Source: Auanema rhodensis (lineage: Eukaryota; Animalia; Nematoda). From it: a stretch of 64,000 nt of DNA. Below, piece by piece: positions 25,801-52,800 of this stretch. Made by a program: the position numbers and the translations under genes. The stretch is taken from the NCBI GenBank assembly GCA_964057225.1, contig OZ059895.1:3782001-3846000 (forward strand). The letters are read 5' to 3'. The notes under the pieces are model-generated. The model searched no databases. It saw nothing but the letters and a program-made list of their open reading frames with translations, and was not told where the DNA came from. How positions within the stretch are numbered: position 1 is the first letter of the stretch; each line of letters begins with the position of its first letter.

Positions 25801-26199
25801 TGAACTGACCGACTAATCAGACATGGATCTTTCCTAGTTCTGTTGCTTGAATGGATGTTTTCCTACGTAGGCTAGTAAAACATGCCCTTCAAAGCATCAG
25901 AACATGTGATCACATTCCAATTTTTTTGTATCTATCTTGTGAAGATAGTAATATATCATATGTTGAACACTATGTTGGAAAGATTTTAATTCAGATTTTC
26001 TAAGTTTTATTCAGTTTGTTTTTTAAACTTTGATTAAGAACTTTGATTTTTGTACACCCATAAATTATACGCAGCACAGGTTACCCTTAAATAATAAACT
26101 GACCGACTAATCAGACATGGATCTTTCCTAGTTCTGTTGCTTGAATGGATGTTTTCCTACGTAGGCTAGTAAAACATGCCCTTCAAAGCATCAGAACAT

Positions 26200-32100: not shown

Positions 32101-35010
32101 AGCATCAGAACATGTGATCACATTCCAATTTTTTTGTATCTATCTTGTGAAGATAGTAATATATCATATGTTGAACACTATGTTGGAAAGATTTTAATTC
32201 AGATTTTCTAAGTTTTATTCAGTTTGTTTTTTAAACTTTGATTAAGAACTTTGATTTTTGTACACCCATAAATTATACGCAGCACAGGTTACCCTTAAAT
32301 AATAAACTGACCGACTAATCAGACATGGATCTTTCCTAGTTCTGTTGCTTGAATGGATGTTTTCCTACGTAGGCTAGTAAAACATGCCCTTCAAAGCATC
32401 AGAACATGTGATCACATTCCAATTTTTTTGTATCTATTTTGTAAAGATAGTAATAAACTTTGATTTTTGTACACCCATAAATTATACGCAGCACAGGTTA
32501 CCCTTAAATAATGAACTGACCGACTAATCAGACATGGATCTTTCCTAGTTCTGTTGCTTGAATGGATGTTTTCCTACGTAGGCTAGTAAAACATGCCCTT
32601 CAAAGCATCAGAACATGTGATCACATTCCAATTTTTTTGTATCTATTTTGTAAAGATAGTAATAAACTTTGATTTTTGTACACCCATAAATTATACGCAG
32701 CACAGGTTACCCTTAAATAATGAACTGACCGACTAATCAGACATGGATCTTTCCTAGTTCTGTTGCTTGAATGGATGTTTTCCTACGTACGCTAGTGAAA
32801 CATGCCCTTCAAAGCATCAGAACATGTGATCACATTCCAATTTTCTTGTATCTATCTTGTAAAGATAGTAATATATCATATGTTGAACCCTATGTTGGAA
32901 AGATTTTAATTCAGATTTTCTAACTTTTATTCAGTTTGTTTTTTAAACTTTGATTAAGAACTTTGATTTTTGTACACCCATAAATTATACGCAGCACAGG
33001 TTACCTTTAAATAATGAACTGACCGACTAATCAGACATGGATCTTTCCTAGTTCTGTTGCTTGAATGGATGTTTTCCTACGTAGGCTAGTAAAACATGCC
33101 CTTCAAAGCATCAGAACATGTGATCACATTCCAATTTTTTTGTATCTATCTTGTAAAGATAGTAATAAACTTTGATTTTTGTACACCCATAAATTATACG
33201 CAGCACAGGTTACCCTTAAATAATGAACTGACCGACTAATCAGACATGAATCTTTCCTAGTTCTGTTGCTTGAATGGATGTTTTCCTACGTAGGCTAGTA
33301 AAACATGCCCTTCAAAGCATCAGAACATGTGATCACATTCCAATTTTTTTGTATCTATCTTGTAAAGATAGTAATAAACTTTGATTTTTGTACACATATA
33401 AATTATACGCAGCACAGGTTACCCTTAAATAATGAACTGACCGACTAATCAGACATGGATCTTTCCTAGTTCTGTTGCTTGAATGGATGTTTTCCTACGT
33501 ATGCTTGTAAAACATGCCCTTCAAAGCATCAGAACATGTGATCACATTCCAATTTTTTTGTATCTATCTTGTAAAGATAGTAATATATCATATGTTGAAC
33601 ACTATGTTGGAAAGATTTTAATTCAGATTTTTTAATTTTTATTCAGTTTGTTTTTTAAACTTTGATTAAGAACTTTGATTTTTGTACACCCATAAAATAT
33701 ACGCAGCACAGGTTACCCTTGAATAATGAACTGACCGACTAATCAGACATGGATCTTTCCTAGTTCTGTTGCTTGAATGGATGTTTTCCTACGTAGGCTA
33801 GTAAAACATGCCCTTCAAAGCATCAGAACATGTGACCACATTCCAATTTTTTTGTATCTATCTTGTAAAGATAGTAATATATCATATGTTGAACACTATG
33901 TTGGAAAGATTTTAATTCAGATTTTCTAACTTTTATTCAGTTTGTTTTTTAAACTTTGATTAAGAACTTTGATTTTTGTACACCCATAAATTATACGCAG
34001 CACAGGTTACCCTTAATTAATGAACTGACCGACTAATCAGACATGGATCTTTCCAAGTTCTGTTGCTTGAACGGATGTTTTCCTACGAAGGCTAGTAAAA
34101 CATGCCCTTCAAAGCATCAGAACATGTGATCACATTCCAATATTTTTGTATCTATCTTGTAAAGATAGTAATATATCATATGTTGAACACTATGTTGGAA
34201 AGATTTTAATTCAGATTTTTTCAACTTTCACTCAGTTTGTTTTCTTAACTTTGATTAAGAACCTTGTTGTTCGTACACCCATAAAATATACGCAGCACAG
34301 GTTACCCTTAAATAATGAACTGACCGACTAATCAGACATGGATCTTTCCTAGTTCTGTTGCTTGAATGGATGTTTTCCTACGTAGGCTAGTAAAACATGC
34401 CCTTCAAAGCATCAGAACATGTGATCACATTCCAATTTTTTTGTATCTATCTTGTAAAGATAGTAATATATCATATGTTGAACACTATGTTGGAAAGATT
34501 TTAATTCAGATTTTTTAATTTTTATTCAGTTTGTTTTTTAAACTTTGATTAAGAACTTTGATTTTTGTACACCCATAAATTATACGCAGCACAGGTTACC
34601 CTTAAATAATGAACTGACCGACTAATCAGACATGGATCTTTCCAAGTTCTGTTGCTTGAACGGATGTTTTCCTACGTAGGCTAGTAAAACATGCCCTTCA
34701 AAGCATCAGAACATGTGATCACATTCCAATTTTTTTGTATCTATCTTGTAAAGATAGTAATATATCATATGTTGAACACTATGTTGGAAAGATTTTAATT
34801 CAGATTTTTTCATCTTTCACTCAGTTTGTTCTCTAAACTTTGATTAAGAACCTTGTTGTTTGTACACCCATAAGATATACGCAGCACAGGTTACCCTTAA
34901 TTAATGAACTGACCGACTAATCAGACATGGATCTTTCCAAGTTCTGTTGCTTGAACGGATGTTTTCCAACGTAGGCTAGTAAAACATGCCCTTCAAAGCA
35001 TCAGAACATG
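26200..35010. repeat. Tandem duplication of a 4405-bp, 17-monomer block
   Basis: Private variants recur at +4405: TGTGAAG at 27741/32146, CGTACGCTAGTG at 28381/32786, and the 61-aa ORFs at 29741/34146. Boundaries are approximate. Confidence 0.92.
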
Positions 35011-35337
35011 TGATCACATTCCAATTTTTTTGTATCTATCTTGTAAAGATAGTAATAAACTTTGATTTTTGTACACCCATAAATTATACGCAGCACAGGT
35101 TACCCTTAAATAATGAACTGACCGACTAATCAGACATGGATCTTTCCTAGTTCTGTTGCTTGAATGGATGTTTTCCTACCTAGGCTAGTAAAACATGCCC
35201 TTCAAAGCATCAGAACATGTGATCACATTCCAATTTTTTTGTATCTATCTTGTAAAGATAGTAATATATCATATGTTGAACACTATGTTCGAAAGATTTT
35301 AATTCAGATTTTCTAACTTTTATTCAGTTTGTTTTTT

Positions 35338-35341
35338 AAAC
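35338..35341 (+). other. Target-site duplication AAAC (second copy at 46821-46824)
   Basis: The intact monomer reads TTTTTTAAACTTTGATT. The junctions read TTTTTT-AAAC|LTR and LTR|AAAC-TTTGATT. Confidence 0.95.
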
Positions 35342-35676
35342 CGTTCCGTTATGCTCTCGCATCTATCCTATAGACCAATGTAGTCTATAAGATGTGCGAT
35401 ACAGTGTTCCAGATGTAGCGGTATTAATAGAGCATATGGATAACATAAGACTCATGAAAAGAAAGGTTTATTCTACATAATGATTACAATAAGTTACGAT
35501 AAGAATTAAAGAGATATAAACTATAGGTGAGCTCTGAGGAGATGACAAGCCATCCTTAGTCATTCCATGAGACAGAACTAAAGTCTGAGTTCCGTATAAA
35601 GGGCGTGTCAGCTCCTCTCGTCTCTTGTCGTCTAGCTCTAACCCGCCTGCTACGTATTGATCATCCGAATGGAACG
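35342..35676 (-). repeat. 3' LTR (335 bp)
   Basis: Direct repeat of 46485-46820. Candidate minus-strand polyadenylation signal AATAAA at 35467-35472. Confidence 0.97.
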
Positions 35677-35688
35677 TGCCATTTTTTC
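35677..35688 (-). promoter_or_regulatory. Putative short, atypical polypurine tract
   Basis: Minus-strand GAAAAAATGGCA directly precedes the 3' LTR. The position is right, but the tract is short and interrupted by pyrimidines. Confidence 0.5.
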
Positions 35689-36402
35689 GAGTTTATGTCG
35701 CGTCCTCGCGACTATCAAAATGTGTGGCTTGTTTCAATCGTAGCAAGAGGTTTAGAGGTTTTACATGTTAAAATATATTGTTGTTGTTCAAATAATACAA
35801 AATTATACAATATTAACCTCAACAATATTGTCTAAAAAGGATTTAATAAGTTTTAAATAAAATAATACATGAGTATAAAGCAAAAACACAATCTTTTAAG
35901 AATACTAGAGCTATATTTTGTCAGCGAAAGTGCATGAAAGTAGCTTTTTGGGCACGACGCTGTATGTCTAACCAATATAGAGCAGAGTAGCGAGAGCTAA
36001 GTTATATTCTCAATGAAGCTAGGCTGTTTCTTCAGCTTTGAAAGAAAACATTATTTGTTTGGAATTATTAAAACAATCCCGTATAATTTCCAGAAATGAA
36101 TCATTAATTACTTGATGATGACTGTTGCTCAGCTTTGATTGCAATATAATGTCTCTCATCTTTCATTTCTTCGGGTTTTTAGGGGAAATTATTTGAGATT
36201 GGAGTAACTTTTATGATAATTTGTAGCTATTATTATATATATATTTTTTTTTCGATGTGCTTGAAACATGACTGCTCATTAAGTTATAGCTTACTGCTCA
36301 TCTATCTGTTGTTTGTGTTGGTAAAATTAATTTTTAGCTCTAGTTTCCTTTAAACGATTTTTATGCAAAATTTTTAACAATAGTGTAATCAATGTGGTTG
36401 TT

Positions 36403-37656
36403 TTATCTTCTTCTTGATGGTATCCAATTATGATCTGATGGGTCTTCTGAGTCAATTTCGGTGTCTAATTCTTCGTTATTGTTTCCGTGTATAACTTCGA
36501 TAATTTCGATGTCACTGTCGTCATCTGAGTCGCTGTTTCTAGCTTTGGAGCGAGTGTTGTGCGCTGCTCCACATGTTGAACTTCGATTGAAAAGTTTCAA
36601 GTTGTCTTTGTGTATATCTTGGAGTTTTCCAAAAGGATTCTTGATTTGTACCATTGATCCTTTTACTTTGATGACCTCAAAGGGTCCATCATAACATTTC
36701 CTCAGCTTTTGACCTATTTTATGTGACTTAATGGTCAACATAACTTGGTCTCCTTCACTGATGTCTCTTTCTTCAATTCGTTGTCTTGAATCGTGTTTCT
36801 TCTTTGCTTGTTGCTGATGTTTTTCCAAGTTATCTTGAATGATAGATTTTCTTTCTTGACGAAGTTGTTCCATGTTTTCTACATCAATGGATATTGTTCC
36901 TGATTCCGGTGTTTCAGGTGATAATTCTTTATCGAGTCTCATACGACTTTCTTTTCCGAATAAAGCTATATATGGTGATATTCCTGTTGTTGAGTGTGTT
37001 GTGGTGTTTAACGCAAAGGTGACTTTTGGCAAAAATAAGTCCCAATCAGTAACTTCTTCGTTCAAATAATGTGTTAATCCTTCTTCTAACGTCCTATGTA
37101 GTCTTTCCACTTGTCCGTTAGAGTTCTTCTGATGCGGGAGTGTTGGTTCATGTTTTATGCCGAGTTTATCACACATATTTTCGAATTTCTTTGATACAAA
37201 ATTGGAACCTCGATCTGTTATTAGTCGATTTGGAGGTCCATAAATGTATACAAAATTTCTGAGGAATCTGTCGATGACAACGTCCGTAACTATTGTAGGT
37301 ATAGCAATAGTTGTCGCCCATTTGGAAAAAGAGTCCTGGATTGTAAGAACGTAGTTGTTGTTTTTTTTTGATGTTGGGAAGGGTCCCATAATATCCATAT
37401 GTATTCTCTCAAATGGTTTAGATGGTATTTCGAATTGACCCATTGGCTGAACGGTCATAGCATGAGGGTCTTTCTTCCTTTGTGCGCATTTAACGCATTG
37501 TTTCACAAAAATTGCTATGTCCGTTTGCATATTTGTCCAGAAGAATCTTCGTAATATGGCTTCTTTCGTTTTATTAATTCCTTGATGTGCCCCGATTGCT
37601 GGGTCTTCATGAAATTCTTCGATGATCTTGCTGATCAGTTCGCTTTTGTGGTAAAA
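36403..37656 (-). CDS. Polyprotein segment 3: integrase (HHCC, D,D35E, GPF) with an acidic C-terminal tail
   Basis: Frame open from 37656 gives FHEDPAIGAH...CVKC. Catalytic motifs HMDIMGP and ITDRG-(35 aa)-VERL; also YDGPFEV. No chromodomain recognised. Confidence 0.95.
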   Translation of the reverse strand, partial: FYHKSELISKIIEEFHEDPAIGAHQGINKTKEAILRRFFWTNMQTDIAIFVKQCVKCAQRKKDPHAMTVQPMGQFEIPSKPFERIHMDIMGPFPTSKKNNNYVLTIQDSFSKWATTIAIPTIVTDVVIDRFLRNFVYIYGPPNRLITDRGSNFVSKKFENMCDKLGIKHEPTLPHQKNSNGQVERLHRTLEEGLTHYLNEEVTDWDLFLPKVTFALNTTTHSTTGISPYIALFGKESRMRLDKELSPETPESGTISIDVENMEQLRQERKSIIQDNLEKHQQQAKKKHDSRQRIEERDISEGDQVMLTIKSHKIGQKLRKCYDGPFEVIKVKGSMVQIKNPFGKLQDIHKDNLKLFNRSSTCGAAHNTRSKARNSDSDDDSDIEIIEVIHGNNNEELDTEIDSEDPSDHNWIPSRRR

Positions 37657-40600
37657 CTAAGGCTGGGTGTGGTCTTTTCGTGCTCGGTTTTGTGTACAGC
37701 ATGTTATCAATTACACAATAACGATCATTGGAGAGCATGTTTTTCTTTGTTCTGTATTCAATTTCGGCAATTGTCTTTTTGATCCAAGGTGTATTGCCTT
37801 GTATTTGTTTAATGTCTGGTATGTTAACAAAGTTAACCTGAGCAAGTTGAGGCTCTTTAACTTTCTTTTTCTTTTCTGGCTTTGGATCATTAGCTTCGTC
37901 TCCAATGTATCGTGAAAGAGCGTCACAGACTTTGTTTAGTCTACCTTCACGATATCTGATCTCAATGTTGTATTCCTGTATCACTAATTGAAATTTTGCT
38001 AGTCTTCCAAACAAATCTCTTCGTGTCATTAAGCTTGTTAATGGTCGGTGATCCGTAATGCATATTGCGTGTGATCCAAGTATATAAGTCCGAAACTGAG
38101 CAAGCGCGTATACTAATCCTAGGGCTTCGATCTCAATAGGAGGATAGTTTCGTTCGGCTTTAACTAATTTTCTACTTGCAAAAGCAATAGGATGTAAGTT
38201 TTTCAAAGGTTCATTCGGATCTTCAGGTTGTAACAGTACTGCTCCGATGGCTATATTGCTGCCATCGCTTTCAATTATGAAAATACGATCTGCTCTTGGT
38301 GGTTTCAGTACTGGTGCTTCCATTAATCTTTTCTTTAATTTTTCTAGCGCTTGTTGGCACTGGTCTGACCATTTGAAATCTGTGTCCAGTTTTGTGAGAT
38401 CATATAGAGGGCTTGCGATGTGAGCAAAGTCTTTAATGAATTTCCGAAAGAATCCTACCATTCCCAAAAATGCTCTAACTCCCGTAGGTGACTGTGGAGC
38501 AGGATAGTCTTGGATGGCGGAAACTTTCTTTGGATCAGGCTTAACTCCATCTCTTCCAACAATTAACCCAAGAAATTTGACTTCTGGTCTAGCAAATGAG
38601 CATTTCTTGAGCTTTATCTTCAATCCTAGTTCTTCAATTCTTTCGAGTACTTCTTCAATATCATATATGTGTTGTTCTGCATTATCTGATATAACAAGTA
38701 GATCGTCTAAGTAAACGAATAGTCTGCATTTGCATCTGCTTTGAAGATATCGTACCGCAGTTTGGAAGGTATGTGGAGCGCCACATAATCCCATAGGCAT
38801 CCTTCTGTATTGATACGTTCCCGTATTTGTTGTGAAGGCTGTTAAGGATCGGTCTGATTTCTTTAATGGTATTTGGAAAAATCCAGAAACTAAATCAAAA
38901 TTGGAAAAATATTTTGATCCAGCTGTCATATCAATAATGTCGGAGATATTAGGAATTACATATGTTTGCTTCCGTGTAACGTTGTTTAAAGCGCGGAAAT
39001 CAGTTACGAAACGAAATGTATCGTCCTTTTTCTTCACTAATACGACAGGACTATTGAACAGTGATGTTGATGGTTCGATTATTCCTTGTTGAAGCATTTC
39101 CTGTACTTGTCTTTCGATTTCCTCTTGTTTTCCTAAGGGTATACGAGTGATCCTAGGTTTAGGCATATCCATGTCAGTTCTTAATGGTATGCTGTGTTCT
39201 ACAGGGCCTTTGAACAGCCCTATATTTTTGTCTTCATTGAGGAAAGCCTTTTTTCGTCTGCGAATTATAGAACGTAAATGATCTTTAAGATTTTGTGTAA
39301 GATCAGCATCTTTTAGATCAAGTTCTTTCATAAAATCAGTTGGAAAAGTAGGTAATTTACTTTCCCAATCAGCTTCAGGTGGAATATAGTCTTGTTTTTG
39401 ATCAGTTGTGAAGATTTCATAGTCTGGCATGATTCCTATCTCAGCTTTAGTAATTACGTGTCCTGATGGTAATTCAATAGATTTGTTGGAGTTGTTTTTG
39501 AACGTGATATCAATGGAATTAACATCGCGAAATGCTGTATGGTATTTGGGTGTTAACATATTGTTATTATCTATCGAGAGCATCGCGAAAGAATCGTCTC
39601 TGATGGGTTTTTCTAATTGAACTTGTAGTGTACAAGTTTCGTTTGGAAGCATATCTCGCTGTTTTAAGTTAATCAGATTGACAGTTGTTGATGTTTTGCT
39701 GAGTCTTCCGTCAATTCCATTAGCTAACCGTACTACGCGGTTTCCAATTTCTAGTGTCCTTTTGTATGGTCTAAGTTTCATGCCAATGTTTTGACTGTCA
39801 AGTGTCTTCATGAAATCTAATCCAATTAATGCTGGTGAAGGGCAGTCTTCATCGTTGGATATATAGAATGTATGATCGATTTCATATCCGGCAATTTCGA
39901 CGGTTAGATCTATTGTACCGATGAATCGAAATTCTGATCCGTTTGCTGTTGTAGCACTTGATTTATTGTTCTTTACAAAGTCGTTTAAAGTCAAGTAATG
40001 TAGTGTTGATACTCTGATATAACTGATAGATGATCCTGAATCCCATAAGGTGAGGACTAATCTGTCATTAACAGTCATCCATAATAGTGGTAAAGATTGA
40101 TCTTTCCTTTTTGAAATTGAACAAACCAATGGTATTGCAATTGGTATATACGTCAGTATTGATGGGTAGTATTGCTTCATTATGTTTCTTGGAATGGGTT
40201 GATCAGGTTGAGTAACTAGCTCTAAGGTTTCTTCGTATGTAGGTGGGTTACTATTTCGATCCTTCAGTTCAATGTGCATGATTGGTATCGGAATTGATTT
40301 GAGGAAGTAGACCTTGATGATAAATGCTAGTATGATCACAATTATTATAACAGATGTGATTGCACCAATTGTAATTAGTGTTCGTTCGATTGTCCCTACC
40401 ATCGTATCAATGAATGAATTCCAAGTGTTTTTTGTGAATTCGTGTGCTTTAGATATGTAGTCACTACTCTTCTTTAAAACACTATAAGCGGCTGATATTT
40501 TAGGATCATTGTGAATTGTATGAAGTACATGATTTTGACGGATTGACGCTAAACTAGCACCATAAGCAATGGCTGTGGTCATGGAGTATACACGTGATGT

Positions 40601-42880
40601 TAAATTAGTGTAAAGGTGTGCTCCAGTGAATTTTAATGGTGTGATATTTTCGTGATGCAGTCCATCTCCCATGGATATGAGACTGACATCTACTGTGCCA
40701 TTGATTCCTTTCCATTCACCGTCTGCTGACCATACGTCTGTTGGTACGTGATCACAATTGATTTCTTTTCCGTGGGGTAGAAGATCTTTTGATCCTGGTG
40801 CTGCGAATAGTAATTGGCCTTCTTCGGTTAAAATTGGCGTTTCGAGATAACATGTATTGTTTACCGTGTGATTGTGATAAATAGTTTTTGTGAAAACTGT
40901 TGGGCAAACATGTACGTGTAATATCTCACTTCCAACAAAACGAGCTGCTATGTCTTCTCTTCCAAGGATAGTACGCATAGCGATTGTTGGTTCGATTTGT
41001 AAAATTGATCGCCATAGCTCTGGATATCTATTTTGGATCTCACATATTGATTCGTATGACTCTTTGAAATGTTTCTGTAGCTCGCTTTGAATCATTGTTG
41101 TGGCGTATTGCAAATGATCTTGTGCAATCTTGCTCGTAATGTTTTGGCGATACTGTTCTTCCGAGTCAATTTTCGAAGCTATGTAATGAGCTTGAGCCTG
41201 AACAGACTGTATTTCTTTTGCTGTTGGTGTTGATGAAGCTCTCTGTTTCCGAATCAATGTCGTGGGTAAGTATGTTATTTCGTCCATTATTGGAATTTGT
41301 TGATCTTTATAAGTGGCGTAGAGCTTTGTTGATGTTGGCGCCTGGGTAGTCGATATTGTCGCGCGTGCGGTAGTTGTTGCGGTTGTGTAGCTCTCTGTTA
41401 TTTTCGGCTCGGCTGTCGACGATGGCGCGCGCGCGGTAGTCGCTGCGGTTGCTTGAGGGCTTGTTATTGCATGCGGCTGCATTGCGGGATCTGATTCGAT
41501 GGTCGTCTTCCGATCGATTATGGGTTGGGCTGATGTTGCTGCCGCGCCGCCTGCAGCGACGCTCGGCGTACGCGTCGTGGTTTGCAGCGATTCAAGCTCG
41601 AGTTTCTCTGCCATTAGTCTCCTTAGGTGTTCTGGTGATATTCTACTTGAAGTATAAGGCAATTTCTTTTCAGCAAGTAGTGGCAAGAAAATTTTCAATA
41701 ATAAATCTTTAGAGATTTTACTAGGCTTGATGAGCTTAGGGTGTGGACCGATTGGTATTCCAAAATTATTTTTGATATCGTAAAACAGTTTATCAGTATT
41801 TTGTACAAATATTCGTGATGCAGGAAGATTAATAAATTTCATCTCATCAATGTCTGCTGCTGTTTTGTTTTTCCTAATTTTTATGAGAGTTTTAAGTTCG
41901 GTTACAAGATTAATTGTTTCTTGTATGAATTCGCTCTTTTGTGCTTCTTCATTTGTTAGTATCTTTTGTCGTATCGGTGGTAATTTCACAAAAGATTGTA
42001 ACACTTCTTGTCTAGATGGAACAGTGAGGTTTTCTTCGATTATGACTGGGGTATTAGCTAAATCAAGCGCAATACTTTCAGTTCTTTCACGATAAGTGCC
42101 TTCTTTGGTATGAAGAATGCGATCGAATTCAATAACAGTTAACCGATCAGATATTTGTTGAAGTAATTGTTTGGGTGTTAGATAAGATATTCCTGTCTTT
42201 GTTGCTAACGCCAGTTCTCTTTGTGCAACATATTGTAGGATTGCTTCATCTTTATCGCGAAAATCGTATTGTTTAAGAAAATGTCTTAAGGATTTATCAT
42301 AAATTTGGATTTTAAAGAAAAATTCAAATTTCTCGCGATTAGCAGTTATCCATTCCTTTAAAGAGTACGTGGGATCTGCCATTCGTCTTCCTTTGATTAA
42401 AGAGATAATCTGCGTAATGCCCGGATTGCTCATAATTGGTCTCAAAAAGGCATATGGGCATATGTGAAGCGTATGAGTCTCAAAATCTTCAACTTCCATT
42501 ACTCTATCTTGGTCTAAAGGGAATGAACATCCTGTAGCGATTGCGCGTTTTTGTCTTTTAAACGGCAATTTTCTAAACTCTCTTTCTACGAGGATAGTAA
42601 TGTTATTGTCATTTGGAAATTTGGGGAGTATGATGTAGTTCCCCGATGTTGTGTGAAATGCTGGTTGTCTAAAACACGAAGCGATAGGTTTTGGGGTTGG
42701 TTTGTTCGAAAGGATAAGAGCAGATTGTGTGCTCGGAATTAGGATAGTATCGCCGCTAATGATGGCTTCATATGTGTGCATATCTATGTAATTGCAACGG
42801 GAATCCGTAGTTTGTGGATCCCAAATAATTATTGATGTGTTTGATTCGCAGTTACCATGATGCGCACTGCCCTTCAGTGT
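37607..42880 (-). CDS. pol: Polyprotein segment 2: rest of gB-like Env, TM and tail, aspartic protease, reverse transcriptase, RNase H; ends at a frameshift at the start of integrase
   Basis: 1724-aa ORF from ATG 42781, with the frame open from 42880. Protease LWDSGS...LIGLDF, RT YLDD, RNase H ESDGS / EIEALG / TDHRPL / DALSR. Confidence 0.95.
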   Translation of the reverse strand, partial: TLKGSAHHGNCESNTSIIIWDPQTTDSRCNYIDMHTYEAIISGDTILIPSTQSALILSNKPTPKPIASCFRQPAFHTTSGNYIILPKFPNDNNITILVEREFRKLPFKRQKRAIATGCSFPLDQDRVMEVEDFETHTLHICPYAFLRPIMSNPGITQIISLIKGRRMADPTYSLKEWITANREKFEFFFKIQIYDKSLRHFLKQYDFRDKDEAILQYVAQRELALATKTGISYLTPKQLLQQISDRLTVIEFDRILHTKEGTYRERTESIALDLANTPVIIEENLTVPSRQEVLQSFVKLPPIRQKILTNEEAQKSEFIQETINLVTELKTLIKIRKNKTAADIDEMKFINLPASRIFVQNTDKLFYDIKNNFGIPIGPHPKLIKPSKISKDLLLKIFLPLLAEKKLPYTSSRISPEHLRRLMAEKLELESLQTTTRTPSVAAGGAAATSAQPIIDRKTTIESDPAMQPHAITSPQATAATTARAPSSTAEPKITESYTTATTTARATISTTQAPTSTKLYATYKDQQIPIMDEITYLPTTLIRKQRASSTPTAKEIQSVQAQAHYIASKIDSEEQYRQNITSKIAQDHLQYATTMIQSELQKHFKESYESICEIQNRYPELWRSILQIEPTIAMRTILGREDIAARFVGSEILHVHVCPTVFTKTIYHNHTVNNTCYLETPILTEEGQLLFAAPGSKDLLPHGKEINCDHVPTDVWSADGEWKGINGTVDVSLISMGDGLHHENITPLKFTGAHLYTNLTSRVYSMTTAIAYGASLASIRQNHVLHTIHNDPKISAAYSVLKKSSDYISKAHEFTKNTWNSFIDTMVGTIERTLITIGAITSVIIIVIILAFIIKVYFLKSIPIPIMHIELKDRNSNPPTYEETLELVTQPDQPIPRNIMKQYYPSILTYIPIAIPLVCSISKRKDQSLPLLWMTVNDRLVLTLWDSGSSISYIRVSTLHYLTLNDFVKNNKSSATTANGSEFRFIGTIDLTVEIAGYEIDHTFYISNDEDCPSPALIGLDFMKTLDSQNIGMKLRPYKRTLEIGNRVVRLANGIDGRLSKTSTTVNLINLKQRDMLPNETCTLQVQLEKPIRDDSFAMLSIDNNNMLTPKYHTAFRDVNSIDITFKNNSNKSIELPSGHVITKAEIGIMPDYEIFTTDQKQDYIPPEADWESKLPTFPTDFMKELDLKDADLTQNLKDHLRSIIRRRKKAFLNEDKNIGLFKGPVEHSIPLRTDMDMPKPRITRIPLGKQEEIERQVQEMLQQGIIEPSTSLFNSPVVLVKKKDDTFRFVTDFRALNNVTRKQTYVIPNISDIIDMTAGSKYFSNFDLVSGFFQIPLKKSDRSLTAFTTNTGTYQYRRMPMGLCGAPHTFQTAVRYLQSRCKCRLFVYLDDLLVISDNAEQHIYDIEEVLERIEELGLKIKLKKCSFARPEVKFLGLIVGRDGVKPDPKKVSAIQDYPAPQSPTGVRAFLGMVGFFRKFIKDFAHIASPLYDLTKLDTDFKWSDQCQQALEKLKKRLMEAPVLKPPRADRIFIIESDGSNIAIGAVLLQPEDPNEPLKNLHPIAFASRKLVKAERNYPPIEIEALGLVYALAQFRTYILGSHAICITDHRPLTSLMTRRDLFGRLAKFQLVIQEYNIEIRYREGRLNKVCDALSRYIGDEANDPKPEKKKKVKEPQLAQVNFVNIPDIKQIQGNTPWIKKTIAEIEYRTKKNMLSNDRYCVIDNMLYTKPSTKRPHPALVLPQKRTDQQDHRRIS
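37910..39200 (-). other. Reverse transcriptase and RNase H domains
   Basis: YLDD at 38702-38713; RNase H catalytic motifs at ~37910-38290. Domain limits are approximate. Confidence 0.95.
39780..40100 (-). other. Aspartic protease domain
   Basis: DSG active-site motif at 40034-40042 and downstream LIGLDF. Domain limits are approximate. Confidence 0.9.
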
Positions 42881-43409
42881 TTAGTAGTAAGTTTGAAAGG
42901 ATGGTATCGTCTGGCATGCGGGTCATAACACCCCGCTCCAGTACTAAACGCGACCGCTCCTCGCACTCGTCGCGGCTAAACGGTCGCGCCGGATCGAAGG
43001 AGGGTTCAGGGGTTGCTTGGGCAATACTATCGATTCTTTCTAGTTCCATATTATTCCACTTTCGATCGCGAATTGCCTGCCTGCATGACTGCACGCTTAT
43101 AGGCTCTATCCTATCGATTGTTTTGTTGCTGTCGCGAAGGAATAATAAATCGCGTACACACAGCCTGTGCACTTCCTTCGAGCAGCGCCACGCGTCCCAC
43201 TCGTGAGCTGTGTGATTGCGAGTGTATAGATGGACTTGTGTTTGGATCACGTGGTTTGCTTCGGTTAATTTGCATTTCTCTAATGTTGGAGGCATGAGTA
43301 GTGCTCCCCCTGTTGCTTTTGTGCATGCTTGGTAGCTTGACGCACAAGGTAGCAGTATTGCTGCTGCTAATGCCATTACAACAGTTAATGAGAGTGGTGA
43401 AAGAGAGAT
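40316..43409 (-). other. env: env region: class III (herpes gB / chuvirus G-like) fusion glycoprotein, signal peptide to TM anchor, ~1030 aa
   Basis: Signal peptide at 43335-43409, about 12 N-X-S/T sequons, furin-type RQKR (42545-42556), gB-like LQY....IQ..............CEIQN....LW.......P......GR...AR..G......C (41113-40904), CY motif, and TM LITIGAITSVIIIVIILAFII (40316-40378). Confidence 0.85.
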
Positions 43410-45059
43410 GGAGTTAACTCTTGAAGAGCTCCTATCTCTTCCTCTCGATTGGTTTCTTCGTTCTTTAAATTGTACTCGCCTTTGTCCATTTCTTCCTCCT
43501 TGATTGTTATATCGAGGATTATAATTATTTTGGTACCAATTAGTACCATTATTGCTGTTTTGACGCTCGTTATTTCTTCCAAAATTATTTGGACGGCGAT
43601 TATTTCCAAAATTATTATTACGTTGTTGGAAATTGTTATAATTTGAACGGTTTTTATTTGTTTGATAATTTTGATAATTTTGATTACCGCGCTGGTAACT
43701 TCGGTCAAAAGTTCTGTTATCTCTTCTCTCTTTATTGCGCGTAAAGGGAGCTAGTGCTTGGTTAACTGCATTCACTAGCATCGCCTGAGTGTCTGCCGTC
43801 TGGTTCAATATTGATTCTTCCCAGCGGGCAGCCTCAATCGCCTCAGCAAAGGTTTTGGGCCTTGCTCGGATCACTCCTGCCTTCAGAGTATTTTTAAGTC
43901 CTCTCAGGAAGGTTGATCTTAGTATGTGATCCTTATGTGGGTCATCACTGGCAAAAGCACTAAGGCTTATTGTTCGCAAAGCCTGAGCAAAGGCATCAAT
44001 CGAAAGATCCCCTTGACTAGTGTTTTGAAGGCTGATCAGTGCTGGGTCCTGATTATATTCAGGACAGAGCTTTGATGTTAAAGCTGCTAACAAATCATTC
44101 CATGAACCCGATGTTTTAAGGTGTTCAGGAGTTTGTTTGTATGCTTCTTCTGCCGCATCATTTTTAAGAAGCAACGGCAGAAGAGTCAACCTTTCAGGTA
44201 TCACTAGGCCAAGTGCATTAGCGAAGACATTAAATTTAGCGGTAAAGTCGCGGAAATTGCGGCTACCGTCATAAACAGGGCAGTAGGGTGATGTTAAAAC
44301 TTGGGCAATTGTTGTTTTCCCCGCTCCGGGTAAATTGGTTGCGGGCTCAGTCATTTTTTTCGGAACAGCTATTACTGTATGTGCAGATCTTGAACTTCCT
44401 GACGTAGAAGTAATATGCTCTGTTTGGTTATATTGGTTAGGTGTCGTCAATTCGTCTAATCTTGGACTATTGAGAATTGGGGTTGATGTTTGTGGGTTAT
44501 TTTTCAAAAGTTTTCTTTGCTCCGGTGAGGTGATTGGAGATAACGTATAGCGCGTGTATGTATTGGGTATTGTAGCAAGTCGCTGTGCTCGGCTAGATTT
44601 TGGGTTTGGGTCTTTGGGTGAGCGATTCAATAAATCAACGACTTTGTTTTTGAGAGATTGTAAGCCTGTTGTTGAAGGTGAACCAGTAGGTTCTTGACTT
44701 GAGAGAGAGAGAGAGATATCAGAATTATTTAGATTTTTATTATTTTTATTTTTATGTATATTGGAAGAGCGTACCTTTTCTTTCGTAGTGGTGTTCGGTG
44801 TCTGTTCGTCTATCACCAAGGGTCGCTCGTCGTCTCCAGATGGTATGTAGTCCGGATCACTAGAACGTTCTGAAGGAGAAAACGTACCTGCACGGGGCGT
44901 GTAAAATTTTTCCACGTTAGGCTTCTCCTCTGCTGTGTCTTCGTTGATGATGGCGACACTTTGCGCGCGAGTTCGGCTTCTGGTTACTGGAGCTGAGTCG
45001 CGGGGATCCGGGTTGGAGTGCGTACTGAGAGGTACTGCTGAGTTATACCTTCTCTCCAC
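42852..45059 (-). CDS. gag: Polyprotein segment 1: Gag (disordered N-terminal region, capsid, N/Q/R-rich nucleocapsid) fused in frame to an internal signal peptide and the N-terminal part of Env; ends at a frameshift
   Basis: Gypsy capsid-like motifs PVYDG..F.DF, LQNTSQGDLSIDAF and FLRGL...RPKTFAEAI (~43810-44290). Then hydrophobic LSLTVVMALAAAILLPCASS and a Cys-rich glycoprotein-like region. The annotated start is GTG; the first ATG is at 44354; the frame is open from 45101. Confidence 0.9.
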   Translation of the reverse strand: MERRYNSAVPLSTHSNPDPRDSAPVTRSRTRAQSVAIINEDTAEEKPNVEKFYTPRAGTFSPSERSSDPDYIPSGDDERPLVIDEQTPNTTTKEKVRSSNIHKNKNNKNLNNSDISLSLSSQEPTGSPSTTGLQSLKNKVVDLLNRSPKDPNPKSSRAQRLATIPNTYTRYTLSPITSPEQRKLLKNNPQTSTPILNSPRLDELTTPNQYNQTEHITSTSGSSRSAHTVIAVPKKMTEPATNLPGAGKTTIAQVLTSPYCPVYDGSRNFRDFTAKFNVFANALGLVIPERLTLLPLLLKNDAAEEAYKQTPEHLKTSGSWNDLLAALTSKLCPEYNQDPALISLQNTSQGDLSIDAFAQALRTISLSAFASDDPHKDHILRSTFLRGLKNTLKAGVIRARPKTFAEAIEAARWEESILNQTADTQAMLVNAVNQALAPFTRNKERRDNRTFDRSYQRGNQNYQNYQTNKNRSNYNNFQQRNNNFGNNRRPNNFGRNNERQNSNNGTNWYQNNYNPRYNNQGGRNGQRRVQFKERRNQSRGRDRSSSRVNSISLSPLSLTVVMALAAAILLPCASSYQACTKATGGALLMPPTLEKCKLTEANHVIQTQVHLYTRNHTAHEWDAWRCSKEVHRLCVRDLLFLRDSNKTIDRIEPISVQSCRQAIRDRKWNNMELERIDSIAQATPEPSFDPARPFSRDECEERSRLVLERGVMTRMPDDTILSNLLLNTEGQCASW

Positions 45060-46471
45060 CTTGTTAGGACTCTTGGTTTGAAAAAAACCTCGAGTGTCTG
45101 ATTACGTGTGGGATGATGGAATTTGAACGTAATTGGGTGGGTATGTACGTTTAGTTGTTGGTGGTAAGTTGGGAAAAGCTAGATTGAGACTGACAACTGG
45201 TTTGGTCAAGTCGGAAGGATAGGAATGAATCTAAGGTTCTGGCCATAACTTTAGATCCGAATTCTACCGTACTTTGAAATTGGACTTTGGTTATCTTGGT
45301 CTTTTGGGTCCAATTTGTATAGCATTTGCATTTTTCTTTTCTCTTTGCACGCATTATGGATGATTGCCTGGTCTCAATGGGCTTATTCCCTTCTCTTTTT
45401 TATAGAATTTTTTGATTTTTAGTCGCAAACTCCCTTAGGCATTCCAAAAAGTTGCATTAAAATTAGACTTTGGTAATCCATCACTCTATCCAAGAAGAAT
45501 TACTAGTCCCAATTGCATACTTAATTCGTTCGTTCATGGTTCAACGGGAAGTAAGGATCTTTTTTAAGAAATCTACCGTAGTCGTTTTGCAAACCAAAGA
45601 TCTCGTTTTATAATATTGAAGTTACATAGCTGACTAAAATTTACAAGAACTATACGAAATTATAAAAAGAATAAGGTGATTTGGAATTGAGTCTCATGTT
45701 TCTAAACAACAAAACGGTATGAGGAAGGTGACATATAGTATGGGGAGAAAATCCAACTAATATGCTTTAGTCAACTCGACCTGACGAATAAATTTAAATT
45801 GGGAGATCAGTTTGTAAGAATATCGCAGGATTTTTCGGACTATAGCGAATGTAAGTTATTGAATTAAACATCCTCTCACTTGTTGTGAGGTTTCCCGTAC
45901 GATTTTTAAGCGTTTTGTTATGTTTTTGGATGGTAAATGCTAAAAGTTGTCTGAACGATTTTAAACGCAAAATATAATAGTCCTTATCGCAAAATTATTT
46001 AAAATTCAAATTGGCATGCTTTTCATCCACAAAATTTAAGAAATAACTGGAGTTATTCTTTCCTCAAAGCCGAAATCAATCCTTAAAAGGAGAATGGTGT
46101 GGGTAATAATCAAAATATATATAAAATCTTTAGGTGAATCTGTTCACGAATTCAGCCTAAAGTCCTCATGTGGCTTCGAGGTCGGGTAACAGTATAATCA
46201 GATGTTAATAGCAAGGATATGTGACTTAGGTTCAGACATGACAAAATTGTGAACAACGGGATCAAGTAAAATAAATTCTTCCCAAAATGTATAATTTTAC
46301 TCTCTTATTATGAGAGTTCCTTGCATCTGTTCCCTATAACGATGTTGGCCCCTCCGTTTTGTGTTTTAGCGTGGAGAAGATGGCAATGGATAAGAGAAAG
46401 TTGAAAAGAAAATGAATATTGCAAGAGTGAATAAAATTTAAGAAAATAAGAGAAAGTAAAAAAACGTTCGA

Positions 46472-46484
46472 GGTGGAACCTCCA
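46472..46484 (-). promoter_or_regulatory. Primer-binding site, tRNA-Gln
   Basis: Minus-strand TGGAGGTTCCACC starts immediately after the 5' LTR. It is complementary to the metazoan tRNA-Gln 3' end (...GGUGGAACCU-CCA, recalled from memory). Confidence 0.88.
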
Positions 46485-46820
46485 CGTTCCGTTATGCTCT
46501 CGCATCTATCCTATAGACCAATGTAGTCTATAAGATGTGCGATACAGTGTTCCAGATGTAGCGGTATTAATAGAGCATAATGGATAACATAAGACTCATG
46601 AAAAGAAAGGTTTATTCTACATAATGATTACAATAAGTTACGATAAGAATTAAAGAGATATAAACTATAGGTGAGCTCTGAGGAGATGACAAGCCATCCT
46701 TAGTCATTCCATGAGACAGAACTAAAGTCTGAGTTCCGTATAAAGGGCGTGTCAGCTCCTCTCGTCTCTTGTCGTCTAGCTCTAACCCGCCTGCTACGTA
46801 TTGATCATCCGAATGGAACG
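46485..46820 (-). repeat. 5' LTR (336 bp), termini 5'-CGTTCC...GGAACG-3'
   Basis: Direct repeat of 35342-35676, identical by eye except one extra A (AGAGCATAATGG vs AGAGCATATGG). Abuts the PBS. Minus-strand AATAAA at 46611-46616. Confidence 0.97.
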
Positions 46821-49800
46821 AAACTTTGATTAAGAACTTTGATTTTTGTACACCCATAAATTACACGCAGCACAGGTTACCCTTAATTAATGAACTGACC
46901 GACTAATCAGACATGGATCTTTCCAAGTTCTGTTGCTTGAACGGATGTTTTCCTACGTAGGCTAGTAAAACATGCCCTTCAAAGCATCAGAACATGTGAC
47001 CACATTCCAATTTTTTTGTATCTATCTTGTAAAGATAGTAATATATCATATGTTGAACACTATGTTGGAAAGATTTTAATTCAGATTTTCTAACTTTTAT
47101 TCAGTTTGTTTTTTAAACTTTGATTAAGAACTTTGATTTTTGTACACCCATAAATTATACGCAGCACAGGTTACCCTTAAATAATGAACTGACCGACTAA
47201 TCAGACATGGATCTTTCCTAGTTCTGCTGCTTGAATGGATGTTTTCCTACGTAGGCTAGTAAAACATGCCCTTCAAAGCATCAGAACATGTGATCACATT
47301 CCAATTTTTTTGTATCTATCTTGTAAAGATAGTAATAAACTTTGATTTTTGTACACCCATAAATTATACACAGCACAGGTTACCCTTAAATAATGAACTG
47401 ACCGACTAATCAGACATGGATCTTTCCTAGTTCTGTTGCTTGAATGGATGTTTTCCTACGTAAGCTAGTAAAACATGCCCTTCAAAGCATCAGAACATGT
47501 GATCACATTCCAATTTTTTTGTATCTATCTTGTAAAGATAGTAATATATCATATGTTGAACACTATGTTGGAAAGATTTTAATTCAGATTTTCTAACTTT
47601 TAATCAGTTTGTTTTTTAAACTTTGATTAAGAACTTTGATTTTTGTACACCCATAAATTATACGCAGCACAGGTTACCCTTAAATAATGAACTGACCGAC
47701 TAATCAGACATGGATCTTTCCTAGTTCTGTTGCTTGAATGGATGTTTTCCTACGTAGGCTAGTAAAACATGCCCTTCAAAGCATCAGAACATGTGATCAC
47801 ATTCCAATTTTTTTGTATCTATCTTGTAAAGATAGTAATATATCATATGTTGAACACTATGTTAGAAAGATTTTAATTCAGATTTTCTAACTTTTAATCA
47901 GTTTGTTTTTTAAACTTTGATTAAGAACTTTGATTTTTGTACACCCATAAATTATACGCAGCACAGGTTACCCTTAAATAATGAACTGACCGACTAATCA
48001 GACATGGATCTTTCCTAGTTCTGTTGCTTGAATGGATGTTTTCCTACGTAGGCTAGTAAAACATGCCCTTCAAAGCATCAGAACATGTGATCACATTCCA
48101 ATTTTTTTGTATCTATCTTGTAAAGATAGTAATAAACTTTGATTTTTGTACACCCATAAATTACACGCAGCACAGGTTACCCTTAATTAATGAACTGACC
48201 GACTAATCAGACATGGATTTTTCCAAGTTCTGTTGCTTGAACGGATGTTTTCCTACGTAGGCTAGTAAAACATGCCCTTCAAAGCATCAGAACATGTGAC
48301 CACATTCCAATTTTTTTGTATCTATCTTGTAAAGATAGTAATATATCATATGTTGAACACTATGTTGGAAAGATTTTAATTCAGATTTTCTAACTTTTAT
48401 TCAGTTTGTTTTTTAAACTTTGATTAAGAACTTTGATTTTTGTACACCCATAAATTATACGCAGCACAGGTTACCCTTAAATAATGAACTGACCGACTAA
48501 TCAGACATGGATCTTTCCTAGTTCTGTTGCTTGAATGGATGTTTTCCTACGTAGGCTAGTAAAACATGCCCTTCAAAGCATCAGAACATGTGATCACATT
48601 CCAATTTTTTTGTATCTATCTTGTAAAGATAGTAATATATCATATGTTGAACACTATGTTGGAAAGATTTTAATTCAGATTTTCTAACTTTTAATCAGTT
48701 TGTTTTTTAAACTTTGATTAAGAACTTTGATTTTTGTACACCCATAAATTATACGCAGCACAGGTTACCCTTAAATAATGAACTGACCGACTAATCAGAC
48801 ATGGATCTTTCCTAGTTCTGTTGCTTGAATGGATGTTTTCCTACGTAGGCTAGTAAAACATGCCCTTCAAAGCATCAGAACATGTGATCACATTCCAATT
48901 TTTTTGTATCTATCTTGTAAAGATAGTAATATATCATATGTTGAACACTATGTTAGAAAGATTTTAATTCAGATTTTCTAACTTTTAATCAGTTTGTTTT
49001 TTAAACTTTGATTAAGAACTTTGATTTTTGTACACCCATAAATTATACGCAGCACAGGTTACCCTTAAATAATGAACTGACCGACTAATCAGACATGGAT
49101 CTTTCCTAGTTCTGTTGCTTGAATGGATGTTTTCCTACGTAGGCTAGTAAAACATGCCCTTCAAAGCATCAGAACATGTGATCACATTCCAATTTTTTTG
49201 TATCTATCTTGTAAAGATAGTAATATATCATATGTTGAACACTATGTTGGAAAGATTTTAATTCAGATTTTCTAACTTTTATTCAGTTTGTTTTTTAAAC
49301 TTTGATTAAAAACTTTGATTTTTGTACACCCATAAATCATACGCAGCACAGGTTACCCTTAAATAATGAACTGACCGACTAATCAGACATGGATCTTTCC
49401 TAGTTCTGTTGCTTGAATGGATGTTTTCCAACGTAGGCTAGTAAAACATGCCCTTCAAAGCATCAGAACATGTGATCACATTCCAATTTTTTTGTATCTA
49501 TCTTGTAAAGATAGTAATATATCATATGTTGAACACTATGTTGGAAAGATTTTAATTCAGATTTTCTAACTTTTATTCAGTTTGTTTTTTAAACTTTGAT
49601 TAAAAACTTTGATTTTTGTACACCCATAAATTATACGCAGCACAGGTTACCCTTAAATAATGAACTGACCGACTAATCAGACATGGATCTTTCCTAGTTC
49701 TGTTGCTTGAATGGATGTTTTCCAACGTAGGCTAGTAAAACATGCCCTTCAAAGCATCAGAACATGTGATCACATTCCAATTTTTTTGTATCTATCTTGT

Positions 49801-52800
49801 AAAGATAGTAATAAACTTTGATTTTTGTACACCCATAAATTATACGCAGCACAGGTTACCCTTAAATAATGAACTGACCGACTAATCAGACATGGATCTT
49901 TCCAAGTTCTGTTGCTTGAACGGATGTTTTCCTACGTAGGCTAGTAAAACATGCCCTTCAAAGCATCAGAACATGTGACCACATTCCAATTTTTTTGTAT
50001 CTATCTTGTAAAGATAGTAATATATCATATGTTGAACACTATGTCGGAAAGATTTTAATTCAGATTTTTTCAACTTTCACTCAGTTTGTTTTCTAAACTT
50101 TGATTAAGAACCTTGTTGTTTGTACACCCATAAATTATACGCAGCACAGGTTACCCTTAATTAATGAACTGACCGACTAATCAGACATGGATCTTTCCTA
50201 GTTCTGTTGCTTGAATGGATGTTTTCCTACGTAGGCTAGTAAAACATGCCCTTCAAAGCATCAGAACATGTGACCACATTCCAATTTTTTTGTATCTATC
50301 TTGTAAAGATAGTAATATATCATATGTTGAACACTATGTCGGAAAGATTTTAATTCAGATTTTTTCAACTTTCACTCAGTTTGTTTTCTAAACTTTGATT
50401 AAGAACCTTGTTGTTTGTACACCCATAAATTATACGCAGCACAGGTTACCCTTAATTAATGAACTGACCGACTAATCAGACATGGATCTTTCCTAGTTCT
50501 GTTGCTTGAATGGATGTTTTCCTACGTAGGCTAGTAAAACATGCCCTTCAAAGCATCAGAACATGTGACCACATTCTAATTTTTTTGTATCTATCTTGTA
50601 AAGATAGTAATATATCATATGTTGAACACTATGTTGGAAAGATTTTAATTCAGATTTTCTCAACTTTCACTCAGTTTGTTTTCTAAACTTTGATTGAGAA
50701 CTTTGATTTTTGTACACCCATAAATTATACGCAGCACAGGTTACCCTTAAATAATGAACTGACCGACTAATCAGACATGGATCTTTCCAAGTTCTGTTGC
50801 TTGAACGGATGTTTTCCTACGTAGGCTAGTAAAACATGCCCTTCAAAGCATCAGAACATGTGACCACATTCCAATTTTTTTGTATCTATCTTGTAAAGAT
50901 AGTAATATATCATATGTTGAACACTAAGTTGGAAAGATTTTAATTCAGATTTTTTCAACTTTCACTCAGTTTGTTTTCTAAACTTTGATTAAGAACCTTG
51001 TTGTTTGTACACCCATAAAATATACGCAGCACAGGTTACCCTTAAATAATGAACTGACCGACTAATCAGACATGGATCTTCCCAAGTTCTGTTGCTTGAA
51101 TGGATGTTTTCCTACGTAGGCTAGTAAAACATGCCTTTCAAAGCATCAGAACATGTGATCACATTCCAATTTTTTTGTATCTATCTTGTAAAGATAGTAA
51201 TATATCATATGTTGAACACTATGTTGGAAAGATTTTAATTCAGATTTTTTCATCTTTCACTCAGTTTGTTTTCTAAACTTTGATTAAGAACCTTGTTGTT
51301 TGTACACGCATAAGATATACGCAGCACAGGTTACCCTTAATTAATGAACTGACCGACTAATCAGACATGGATCTTTCCTAGTTCTGTTGCTTGAATGGAT
51401 GTTTTCCAACGTAGGCTAGTAAAACATGCCCTTCAAAGCATCAGAACATGTGATCACATTCCAATTTTTTTGTATCTATCTTGTAAAGATAGTAATATAT
51501 CATATGTTGAACACTATGTTGGAAAGATTTTAATTCAGATTTTCTAACTTTTATTCAGTTTGTTTTTTAAACTTTGATTAAAAACTTTGATTTTTGTACA
51601 CCCATAAATTATACGCAGCACAGGTTACCCTTAAATAATGAACTGACCGACTAATCAGACATGGATCTTTCCTAGTTCTGTTGCTTGAATGGATGTTTTC
51701 CAACGTAGGCTAGTAAAACATGCCCTTCAAAGCATCAGAACATGTGATCACATTCCAATTTTTTTGTATCTATCTTGTAAAGATAGTAATAAACTTTGAT
51801 TTTTGTACACCCATAAATTATACGCAGCACAGGTTACCCTTAAATAATGAACTGACCGACTAATCAGACATGGATCTTTCCAAGTTCTGTTGCTTGAACG
51901 GATGTTTTCCTACGTAGGCTAGTAAAACATGCCCTTCAAAGCATCAGAACATGTGACCACATTCCAATTTTTTTGTATCTATCTTGTAAAGATAGTAATA
52001 TATCATATGTTGAACACTATGTCGGAAAGATTTTAATTCAGATTTTTTCAACTTTTATTCAGTTTGTTTTTTAAACTTTGATTAAGAACTTTGATTTTTG
52101 TACACCCATAAATTATACGCAGCACAGGTTACCCTTAAATAATGAACTGACCGACTAATCAGACATGGATCTTTCCTAGTTCTGTTGCTTGAATGGATGT
52201 TTTCCAACGTAGGCTAGTAAAACATGCCCTTCAAAGCATCAGAACATGTGATCATATTCCAATTTTTTTGTATCTATCTTGTAAAGATAGTAATAAACTT
52301 TGATTTTTGTACACCCATAAATTATACGCAGCACAGGTTACCCTTAAATAATGAACTGACCGACTGATCAGACATGGATCTTTCCTAGTTCTGTTGCTTG
52401 AATGGATGTTTTCCTACGTAGGCTAGTAAAACATGCCCTTCAAAGCATCAGAACATGTGATCACATTCCAATTTTTTTGTATCTATCTTGTAAAGATAGT
52501 AATATATCATATGTTGAACACTATGTTGGAAAGATTTTAATTCAGATTTTCTAACTTTTATTCAGTTTGTTTTTTAAACTTTGATTAAGAACTTTGATTT
52601 TTGTACACCCATAAATTACACGCAGCACAGGTTACCCTTAAATAATGAACTGACCGACTAATCAGACATGGATCTTTCCTAGTTCTGTTGCTTGAATGGA
52701 TGTTTTCCTACGTAGGCTAGTAAAACATGCCCTTCAAAGCATCAGAACATGTGACCACATTCTAATTTTTTTGTATCTATCTTGTAAAGATAGTAATATA

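Follow-up and report, generated by a model that had tools for sequence, protein, structure and literature searches.

The window, by which we mean the whole 64,000-nucleotide stretch of Auanema rhodensis DNA analysed here, contains on its minus strand a Ty3/gypsy element of about 11.5 kb (35342-46820) that sits inside satellite DNA and carries, between gag and pol, an env gene with a central helix of the glycoprotein B (gB) type. We consider it highly probable that this is a likely recent LTR element whose env is a fusogen, as predicted, of enveloped particles. The pairing of a Gypsy element with a gB-type env is no discovery, because the class has already been published: Chary and Hayashi (eLife 2026, PMC13524379) describe, in the accessible part of their paper, Ty3/gypsy elements with a gB-type env from many animals. 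The novelty implied by the initial annotation of this DNA is thereby lost. What the window copy adds is an apparently young member from a nematode lineage missing from the published table.

The features of the element and of its surroundings are collected in Table 1. The LTR pair is identical at 335/335 aligned bases, with a single 1-base gap, and its termini read CG...CG instead of the usual TG...CA. Because the LTRs are nearly identical and AAAC is duplicated on both sides, a 4-mer that empty satellite units carry once, the insertion is likely young. A satellite unit used as a probe matches the whole window apart from 35338-46820.

Table 1. Features of the element and its flanks, in positions of the window
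Feature	Positions	Strand	Remarks
Satellite array left of insertion	1..35337	.	294- and 209-bp units
Target-site duplication AAAC, left copy	35338..35341	.	flanks LTR
3' LTR	35342..35676	-	335 bp
Putative polypurine tract, weak	35679..35688	-	purine-rich, two bases before 3' LTR; role suggested by position
ORF3	36403..37656	-	417 aa integrase: Integrase_H2C2 E 2e-17, rve E 4.5e-16
ORF2	37607..42880	-	1757 aa: remaining env, protease, RT, RNase H
RNase H	37961..38293	-	Pfam E 3e-28
Reverse transcriptase core (YLDD)	38546..39163	-	Pfam E 6e-33
Aspartic protease (DSG)	39791..40093	-	Pfam E 4e-07
Linker, membrane segment to protease	40106..40300	-	contains PPTY motif
Env transmembrane segment	40301..40378	-	hydropathy 2.97
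Env domains III-V	40391..41245	-	central helix, beta crown, arm
Ser/Thr/Pro-rich mucin-like tract	41246..41590	-	poorly conserved; ends near second basic motif RKQR
Inserted region, ~320 aa	41591..42544	-	predicted helical; first 188 aa 48% identical to P0001
Furin-type site RQKR, candidate	42545..42556	-	RTKR in P0001, RKKR in P0127 at equivalent place
Remainder of env domains I-II	42581..42880	-	61% identical to P0001
ORF1	42852..45101	-	749 aa between stops, with Gag, the signal-like segment and the first part of env
Env N-terminal part	42855..43331	-	most of fusion domains I-II; 56% identical to P0001
Predicted fusion loop LLFL	about 43137-43148	-	hydrophobic hairpin tip in env N-terminal part
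Internal hydrophobic signal-like segment	43332..43409	-	between Gag and env, VNSI motif ahead; putative cleavage
Gag capsid region, approximate	43782..44294	-	within ORF1
Primer-binding site, tRNA-Gln type	46473..46484	-	12-mer abutting 5' LTR
5' LTR	46485..46820	-	336 bp; ends CG...CG
Target-site duplication AAAC, right copy	46821..46824	.	flanks LTR
Satellite array right of insertion	46821..64000	.	same 294- and 209-bp units

Three long minus-strand frames (ORF1, ORF2 and ORF3) run through the element in the order gag-env-pol. ORF1 matches the Pfam families Retrotrans_gag (E 2.8e-05) and Ty3_capsid (E 0.0034), while the Pfam families of the other two give the Pol order protease-RT-RNase H-integrase. 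Ty3-G Gag-Pol is among the best solved RT relatives, with E 1.4e-80, and the Pr125Pol and p80 RTs stay at 1e-36 or weaker. The element thus shows the LTRs, target-site duplication, tRNA primer site, Pol order and RT affinity of the Ty3/gypsy group (Metaviridae), together with the env between gag and pol that distinguishes the GAG-ENV-POL errantiviruses; its earlier attribution to Gypsy is borne out by both the Ty3-type families and the Ty3-G match.

Env extends from about 43331 down to 40106, and a frame break near 42850-42880, at the boundary of ORF1 and ORF2, divides it. This boundary is a break inside env, because in the nearest database protein, P0001 from Auanema sp., a single chain runs colinear with the last part of ORF1 and on through ORF2. 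A second break, near 37610-37656, falls at the ORF2/ORF3 boundary, where integrase starts. Judged from its reading frames, the window copy as written is unable to make a whole polyprotein, and as assembled it lacks the uninterrupted ORFs of the intact errantiviruses published by Chary and Hayashi (PMC13524379, accessible part), a failing that bears on the copy and not on the family. Contigs from four sequencing runs of three studies, one of the runs being possibly the window's own source, match the element at high identity. Those crossing the first break zone align with gaps to the window in 4/4 runs, and those crossing the second do so clearly in 3/4, the remaining one being marginal. Since contigs of other runs align gapped over both zones, the two breaks may be peculiar to the window copy or have arisen when it was assembled. 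Internally deleted derivatives, without most of env and pol, are found among the contigs of all four runs.

The initial annotation had proposed, from the stretch at 40780-41220, that this env is a gB-like class III fusogen, and this reading holds. The stretch corresponds to the helix at the centre of a class III fusion protein and covers domain III and no more than the beginning of domain IV; the peptide singled out there lies at ORF2 residues 590-662 (41113 down to 40895 in the window) and is directly followed by TCY. Over the whole of ORF2, the Pfam family Monjiviricetes_fusion (PF24664) is matched at E 3.1e-12, with 45.7 bits against a cut-off of 27, whereas Glycoprotein_B (PF00606), at E 7.5e-08 and 32.6 bits, stays below its cut-off of 43. 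When ORF2 residues 545-870 were compared with the PDB by phmmer, 42 distinct sequences were matched at E<=10 (best E 4.5e-04), all named glycoprotein B save one named ORF8, and the first ~60 columns of the alignment to gB are free of gaps, in agreement with the ungapped register noted before.

A profile of env with 41 rows extends this picture. It comprises the P0001 ectodomain, the window ORF2 piece and 39 of the best 150 among 221 scan matches, the 39 being picked because they are shorter than about 1100 aa and, in most cases, carry both env halves. Against gB structures it reaches E 1.2e-15 through domain III. Its N-terminal half, through profile positions 67-203 in the fusion domain, matches rhabdovirus-type G chains instead of gB, at about E 1e-05; these chains are labelled 'Glycoprotein' or RABV-G (9kfb), and the structures 7u9g and 8a1e are presumably lyssavirus G. 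PF24664 is matched by 36/41 rows and PF00606 by 22/41. The PF00606 scores obtained for this env, 32.6-35.9 bits, fall under the cut-off of 43, so that membership in the herpesvirus gB family is not reached. Four cysteines (C764, C810, C828 and C860, in aligned homologue numbering) are invariant or nearly so over the 41 rows.

The AlphaFold/Foldseek comparison that the initial annotation had put forward as a check was carried out on the ectodomain of P0001, a natural homologue to which the window core is 56-61% identical, in place of an intact window env. The model has a mean pLDDT of 65.6, with core blocks mostly at 75-97, and a pTM of 0.43. Its N-terminal 240 residues are rich in beta strands and include a long beta-hairpin tipped by ILFL (LLFL in the window), with pLDDT of 64-97; a helix of 77 residues, a beta crown and helices at the C-terminus make up the rest. 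A hydrophobic loop on a hairpin, a PH-like domain, a central helix and a beta crown, all features of class III proteins, are therefore present in the model, as is a gB-like ectodomain of domains I-V between a signal/membrane segment and a membrane segment. Foldseek against the PDB placed gB on top (E 1e-09; 113 matches at E<=0.001). In VIA-align the first 43 entries were all gB, with Z from 12.9 to 10.0, mostly 390-450 aligned residues and rmsd of 4.4-7.5; the leading overlays (Z 12.9 with 309 residues at rmsd 4.4, Z 12.6 with 426 at rmsd 6.9) span model residues 1-950. Taken over the whole model, the TM-score is low, at 0.19 by query and about 0.3 by target, as is to be expected because of the long disordered insert. 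A single-sequence fold of window ORF2 residues 1-870 was discarded, with a pLDDT of 35.

By sequence and homologue model, then, the window env is a gene for a class III fusogen of the gB type, with a predicted fusogenic role, gB-like by fold yet outside the PF00606 assignment of herpesvirus gB. In a library of viral models the first gB appears only at rank 6, behind Beihai rhabdo-like virus 3, Nyavirus midwayense, an unnamed entry, Keturi virus and a hemipteran rhabdo-related virus. Since models from negative-strand RNA viruses or without a name outrank gB, the env is correctly labelled 'class III, gB-type', but a derivation from herpesviruses is not supported. The special tie to herpesviruses drawn at first thus loses its footing, also in view of the rhabdovirus-type matches of the N-terminal half, although an ancient viral origin of env may be supposed.

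Relatives were gathered through both env and pol. Word-based protein searches with env returned P0001 as the sole match among 1893 and 7981 candidates, whereas a full HMMER scan with env gave 221 matches at E<=0.001, the best 150 of which are listed. The pol search, the source of the named relatives, gave 448 proteins, 120 of them listed; among those listed, the best named matches come from Auanema, Caenorhabditis, Diploscapter, Heterorhabditis, Ancylostoma and Oesophagostomum. Going by protein relatives, the element's host is likely a rhabditid nematode close to Auanema. Many named nematode relatives hold gag, env, protease, RT and integrase families in one chain, and env precedes RT in 53 of the 54 stored proteins that carry both. 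Three matches to viral or metagenome contigs (19-48 aa, E 0.001-0.002), where gag, RT and integrase were absent, were dismissed as chance.

The phylogenies place the window with its Auanema relatives twice. The RT-RNase H tree holds 68 sequences from 118 with a near-whole RT, namely the window, all env-bearing matches and the ids up to P0070; P0001 and P0030 were omitted as partial, and the tree was rooted at its midpoint, without a BEL/Pao outgroup. There the window groups with two Auanema proteins (support 0.991) in a clade of 29 (0.999), of whose members 25 have a detected env. The tree of env domains III-IV, made from the window and 164/167 matches, joins the window to P0001 (0.757); both lie in a seven-member group to which the other Auanema env also belongs (0.954), and deeper nodes are weak. 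In these trees env and pol have travelled together in the nematode clade, and the gain of env is older than the clade. The initial annotation had supposed that this very Gypsy lineage captured the fusogen; env being common to the whole nematode clade and the env tree giving the same neighbours, there was no such fresh capture.

This history leaves little room for the view that this Gypsy lineage recently took up a herpesvirus gB gene of its own, which we judge very improbable. The best solved-structure matches are indeed herpesvirus gB, but the PDB has few other class III types, five rhabdo-like, nyami-like or unnamed glycoproteins come before gB among the viral models, identity in the gB overlays is 10-16% in nearly all rows, and both trees argue for shared ancestry of env within the clade. 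We give next to no credence to a further reading, in which the element would belong to BEL/Pao, like Tas or the mosquito carriers of chuvirus G, and not to Gypsy. A gB-like env is known from Tas, as the initial annotation stated in agreement with the accessible account of Merchant et al. (PMC9094657), and DUF5641 occurs on 3/41 env rows. However, no Pao-type Pfam family, be it of Gag or of RNase H, is found on the three ORFs, which carry Ty3-type RNase H, integrase and capsid instead, and the RT motif is YLDD, against the YVDN reported for nematode belpaoviruses (Belpaoviridae) in the accessible part of PMC9094657.

A more substantial alternative, still quite unlikely in our view, is that env keeps its fold without fusing membranes, the element spreading intracellularly or in trans and the insert between domains II and III reflecting decay or some other role. 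The two frame breaks of the window copy, the deleted derivatives in every run and the drift of linker length from 26 to 526 aa among relatives would all fit such a loss. Against it, the env core has diverged from P0001 no more than the protease has (56-61% and 54% identity), the four cysteines are kept in all or nearly all rows of the profile, and the first 188 aa of the insert are conserved in an open frame. We retain the reading of env as a predicted fusogen.

The insert itself comprises ~430 residues after RQKR, and its identity to P0001, 48% at first, falls to 26% before the Ser/Thr/Pro-rich tract is reached. Linkers between domains II and III were measured in 93 of the 264 stored proteins, those with both env halves, one of which was dropped for overlapping coordinates. 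Among the remaining 92 relatives the median is about 80 aa and 10/92 exceed 300 aa; the linker of P0001 measures 514 aa and that of the window has the same length (471 vs 470 by a second measure), near the longest of all. As the linkers of relatives run from 26 to 526 aa, long II-III loops are part of a continuum. The helical part is clear in P0127 and P0124 and weak in P0003, P0004 and P0005. A conserved and possibly folded insert in the window lineage is best taken as a lead. Nothing in Pfam matches the insert better than E 0.22, and Atlas cluster matches (0.90-0.91; recognition 1968, under the 2300 mark; at most 162/256 features), unnamed and mostly bacterial, were rejected. Basic pairs occur behind the insert in close relatives with no single fixed motif, a weak hint of a second cut site. 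A literature search that covered few subscription papers returned no description of this insert.

We tentatively raise the idea, more doubtful than probable, that the II-III loop of Auanema-like elements gained a conserved helical domain of ~200-300 residues and a mucin-like tract, both lying between the furin-type site and a weaker basic site downstream, and that this addition would act as a built-in module for receptor binding or fusion triggering or as a shed shield. The mucin domain of filoviruses is such a shed shield. If the idea is true, the insert, as a module for binding or triggering, may do the job of herpesvirus gH/gL or gD, and it would suggest a way for gB-type envelopes of retroelements to gain entry when no partner glycoprotein is at hand. 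The hypervariable loop and its conserved insert offer in any case a concrete place to study entry, in small laboratory nematodes.

A signal-like hydrophobic segment precedes env in 13/13 relatives with sequence upstream of it, and a membrane segment follows env in 24/24 relatives examined, then a linker of 36-143 aa and the protease; both fit one polyprotein that crosses the ER membrane twice. Gag-Env-Pol would be threaded through as follows: the hydrophobic stretch that follows Gag would serve as internal signal, so that Gag stays cytosolic, and the env membrane segment would stop transfer, with env luminal and Pol cytosolic. Signal peptidase would free the N-terminus of env, the element's protease would release the Gag and Pol parts at sites of the VN-x-V/I type, and furin would cleave within the II-III loop. 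In its strict form the VN-x-V/I motif is found before protease in 8/21, before env in 4/12 and before integrase in 6/18 relatives, against 4-6% of random stretches, but these relatives are kin and their counts not independent, and most of them lack it. In the window it lies at domain junctions (ORF1 443 and 562; ORF2 1067 and 1682), with two more matches, 323 and 1120, off junctions, and it probably marks protease sites. PPxY was rejected as a family-wide budding signal, as besides the window it occurs in P0001 alone, 1/24 relatives. As the last step env would form trimers, be carried on budding particles and bring about their fusion with another cell, for instance from soma to germ line; fusion, trimer formation and cell-to-cell spread are suggested here by the model and by analogy with Drosophila gypsy.

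With regard to known systems, the window env resembles herpesvirus gB in the domain III helix and cysteines, rhabdovirus G in domains I-II, and the glycoproteins of Monjiviricetes (chu-, nyami- and xinmo-like) through PF24664. It differs from these viral class III fusogens in being embedded in a retroelement polyprotein and in its 430-aa II-III insert, and the element has none of the gH/gL partners of herpesvirus gB. The BEL/Pao elements Tas, Atlas and the mosquito carriers of chuvirus G are also LTR elements with a viral-type fusogen, from a different retroelement family. Atlas, according to the accessible part of PMC9094657, likewise has a single polyprotein, though ordered Gag-Pol-Env; its env comes after pol and is of class II. 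What is accessible of PMC7084138 treats a phlebovirus-type env and has no bearing on the window.

The closest company is that of the nematode GAG-ENV-POL errantiviruses, like the window in their Ty3/gypsy pol, in the position of env and in its gB-type fold. The accessible part of PMC13524379 reports gB-type env, in this order, as the sole kind in elements of nematodes, bryozoans and flatworms, describes domains I-V and fusion loops in it, states that it is unknown how errantiviruses with gB enter cells, and credits the nematode case to Sacco et al. 2022 (J Gen Virol, PMID 35550022). The latter work, going by its title and this account, concerns non-canonical nematode endogenous retroviruses, in which a metavirus has an RNA-virus glycoprotein gene and a flipped env/pol order. 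As accessible, the text of PMC13524379 has no mention of a linker, a mucin tract or a polyprotein, and its master table has no Auanema element; its genome table has ENV-POL matches in two Auanema assemblies. The nearest published element by eye is Nematoda_Chromadorea_Clat_errantivirus_4 (group Nematoda_C1). In the supplementary files of that paper, this element and Ctro_errantivirus_1, both from Caenorhabditis and labelled Gln, have the same 12-mer primer site as the window (supplementary file 1), and domains I-II of Clat_errantivirus_4 show, again by eye, the same pattern of eight cysteines (supplementary file 2, row 167).

The LTRs of this Ty3/gypsy element end in CG...CG rather than in TG...CA (35342-35343, 46819-46820, 35671-35678 and 46483-46490), with a 6-bp inverted repeat at the ends and, at both inner LTR borders, a TG directly following the terminal GGAACG. 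In the element's lineage, integrase cleavage may take place behind CG. ORF1, the frame encoding Gag and the first part of env, follows a leader of about 1.4 kb (45102-46472) and has 249 open codons (44355-45101) upstream of its first methionine.

Contigs joining window positions 36838/43246, 36596/42480 and 42557/44775 are present in all four sequencing runs, and they are internally deleted derivatives of the element, in which the greater part either of env and pol or of gag is missing. In the same runs, the summed contig depth of LTR and gag, which is not a copy number, lies far above that of env. Together, both observations suggest the existence of non-autonomous copies and of numerous solo or related LTRs. 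As for the flanking satellite, its two unit types alternate irregularly and are 95-100% alike, the shorter one appearing to be the longer one minus about 85 bp.

Features flanking or within the element
Feature	Position	Strand	Details
Satellite array	1-35337 and 46821-64000		Both sides of element; unit lengths 294 and 209 bp
Linker, env membrane segment to protease	40106-40300	minus	Holds PPTY and YPSIL

Among nematode relatives, the annotated protein P0015 of Caenorhabditis nigoni carries, in one chain, the gB-type env families together with PF07245, the phlebovirus G2 family, and PF18701; its domain content is likely that of a gene model merging two nested elements. PF18701 is a Pao-associated family.

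In the linker that follows the env membrane segment, PPxY is missing from 23 of the 24 relatives examined. The closest database protein, P0001 of Auanema sp., has PPSY and YPTML as counterparts of the window's PPTY and YPSIL, and these motifs resemble late-budding or WW-binding ones.
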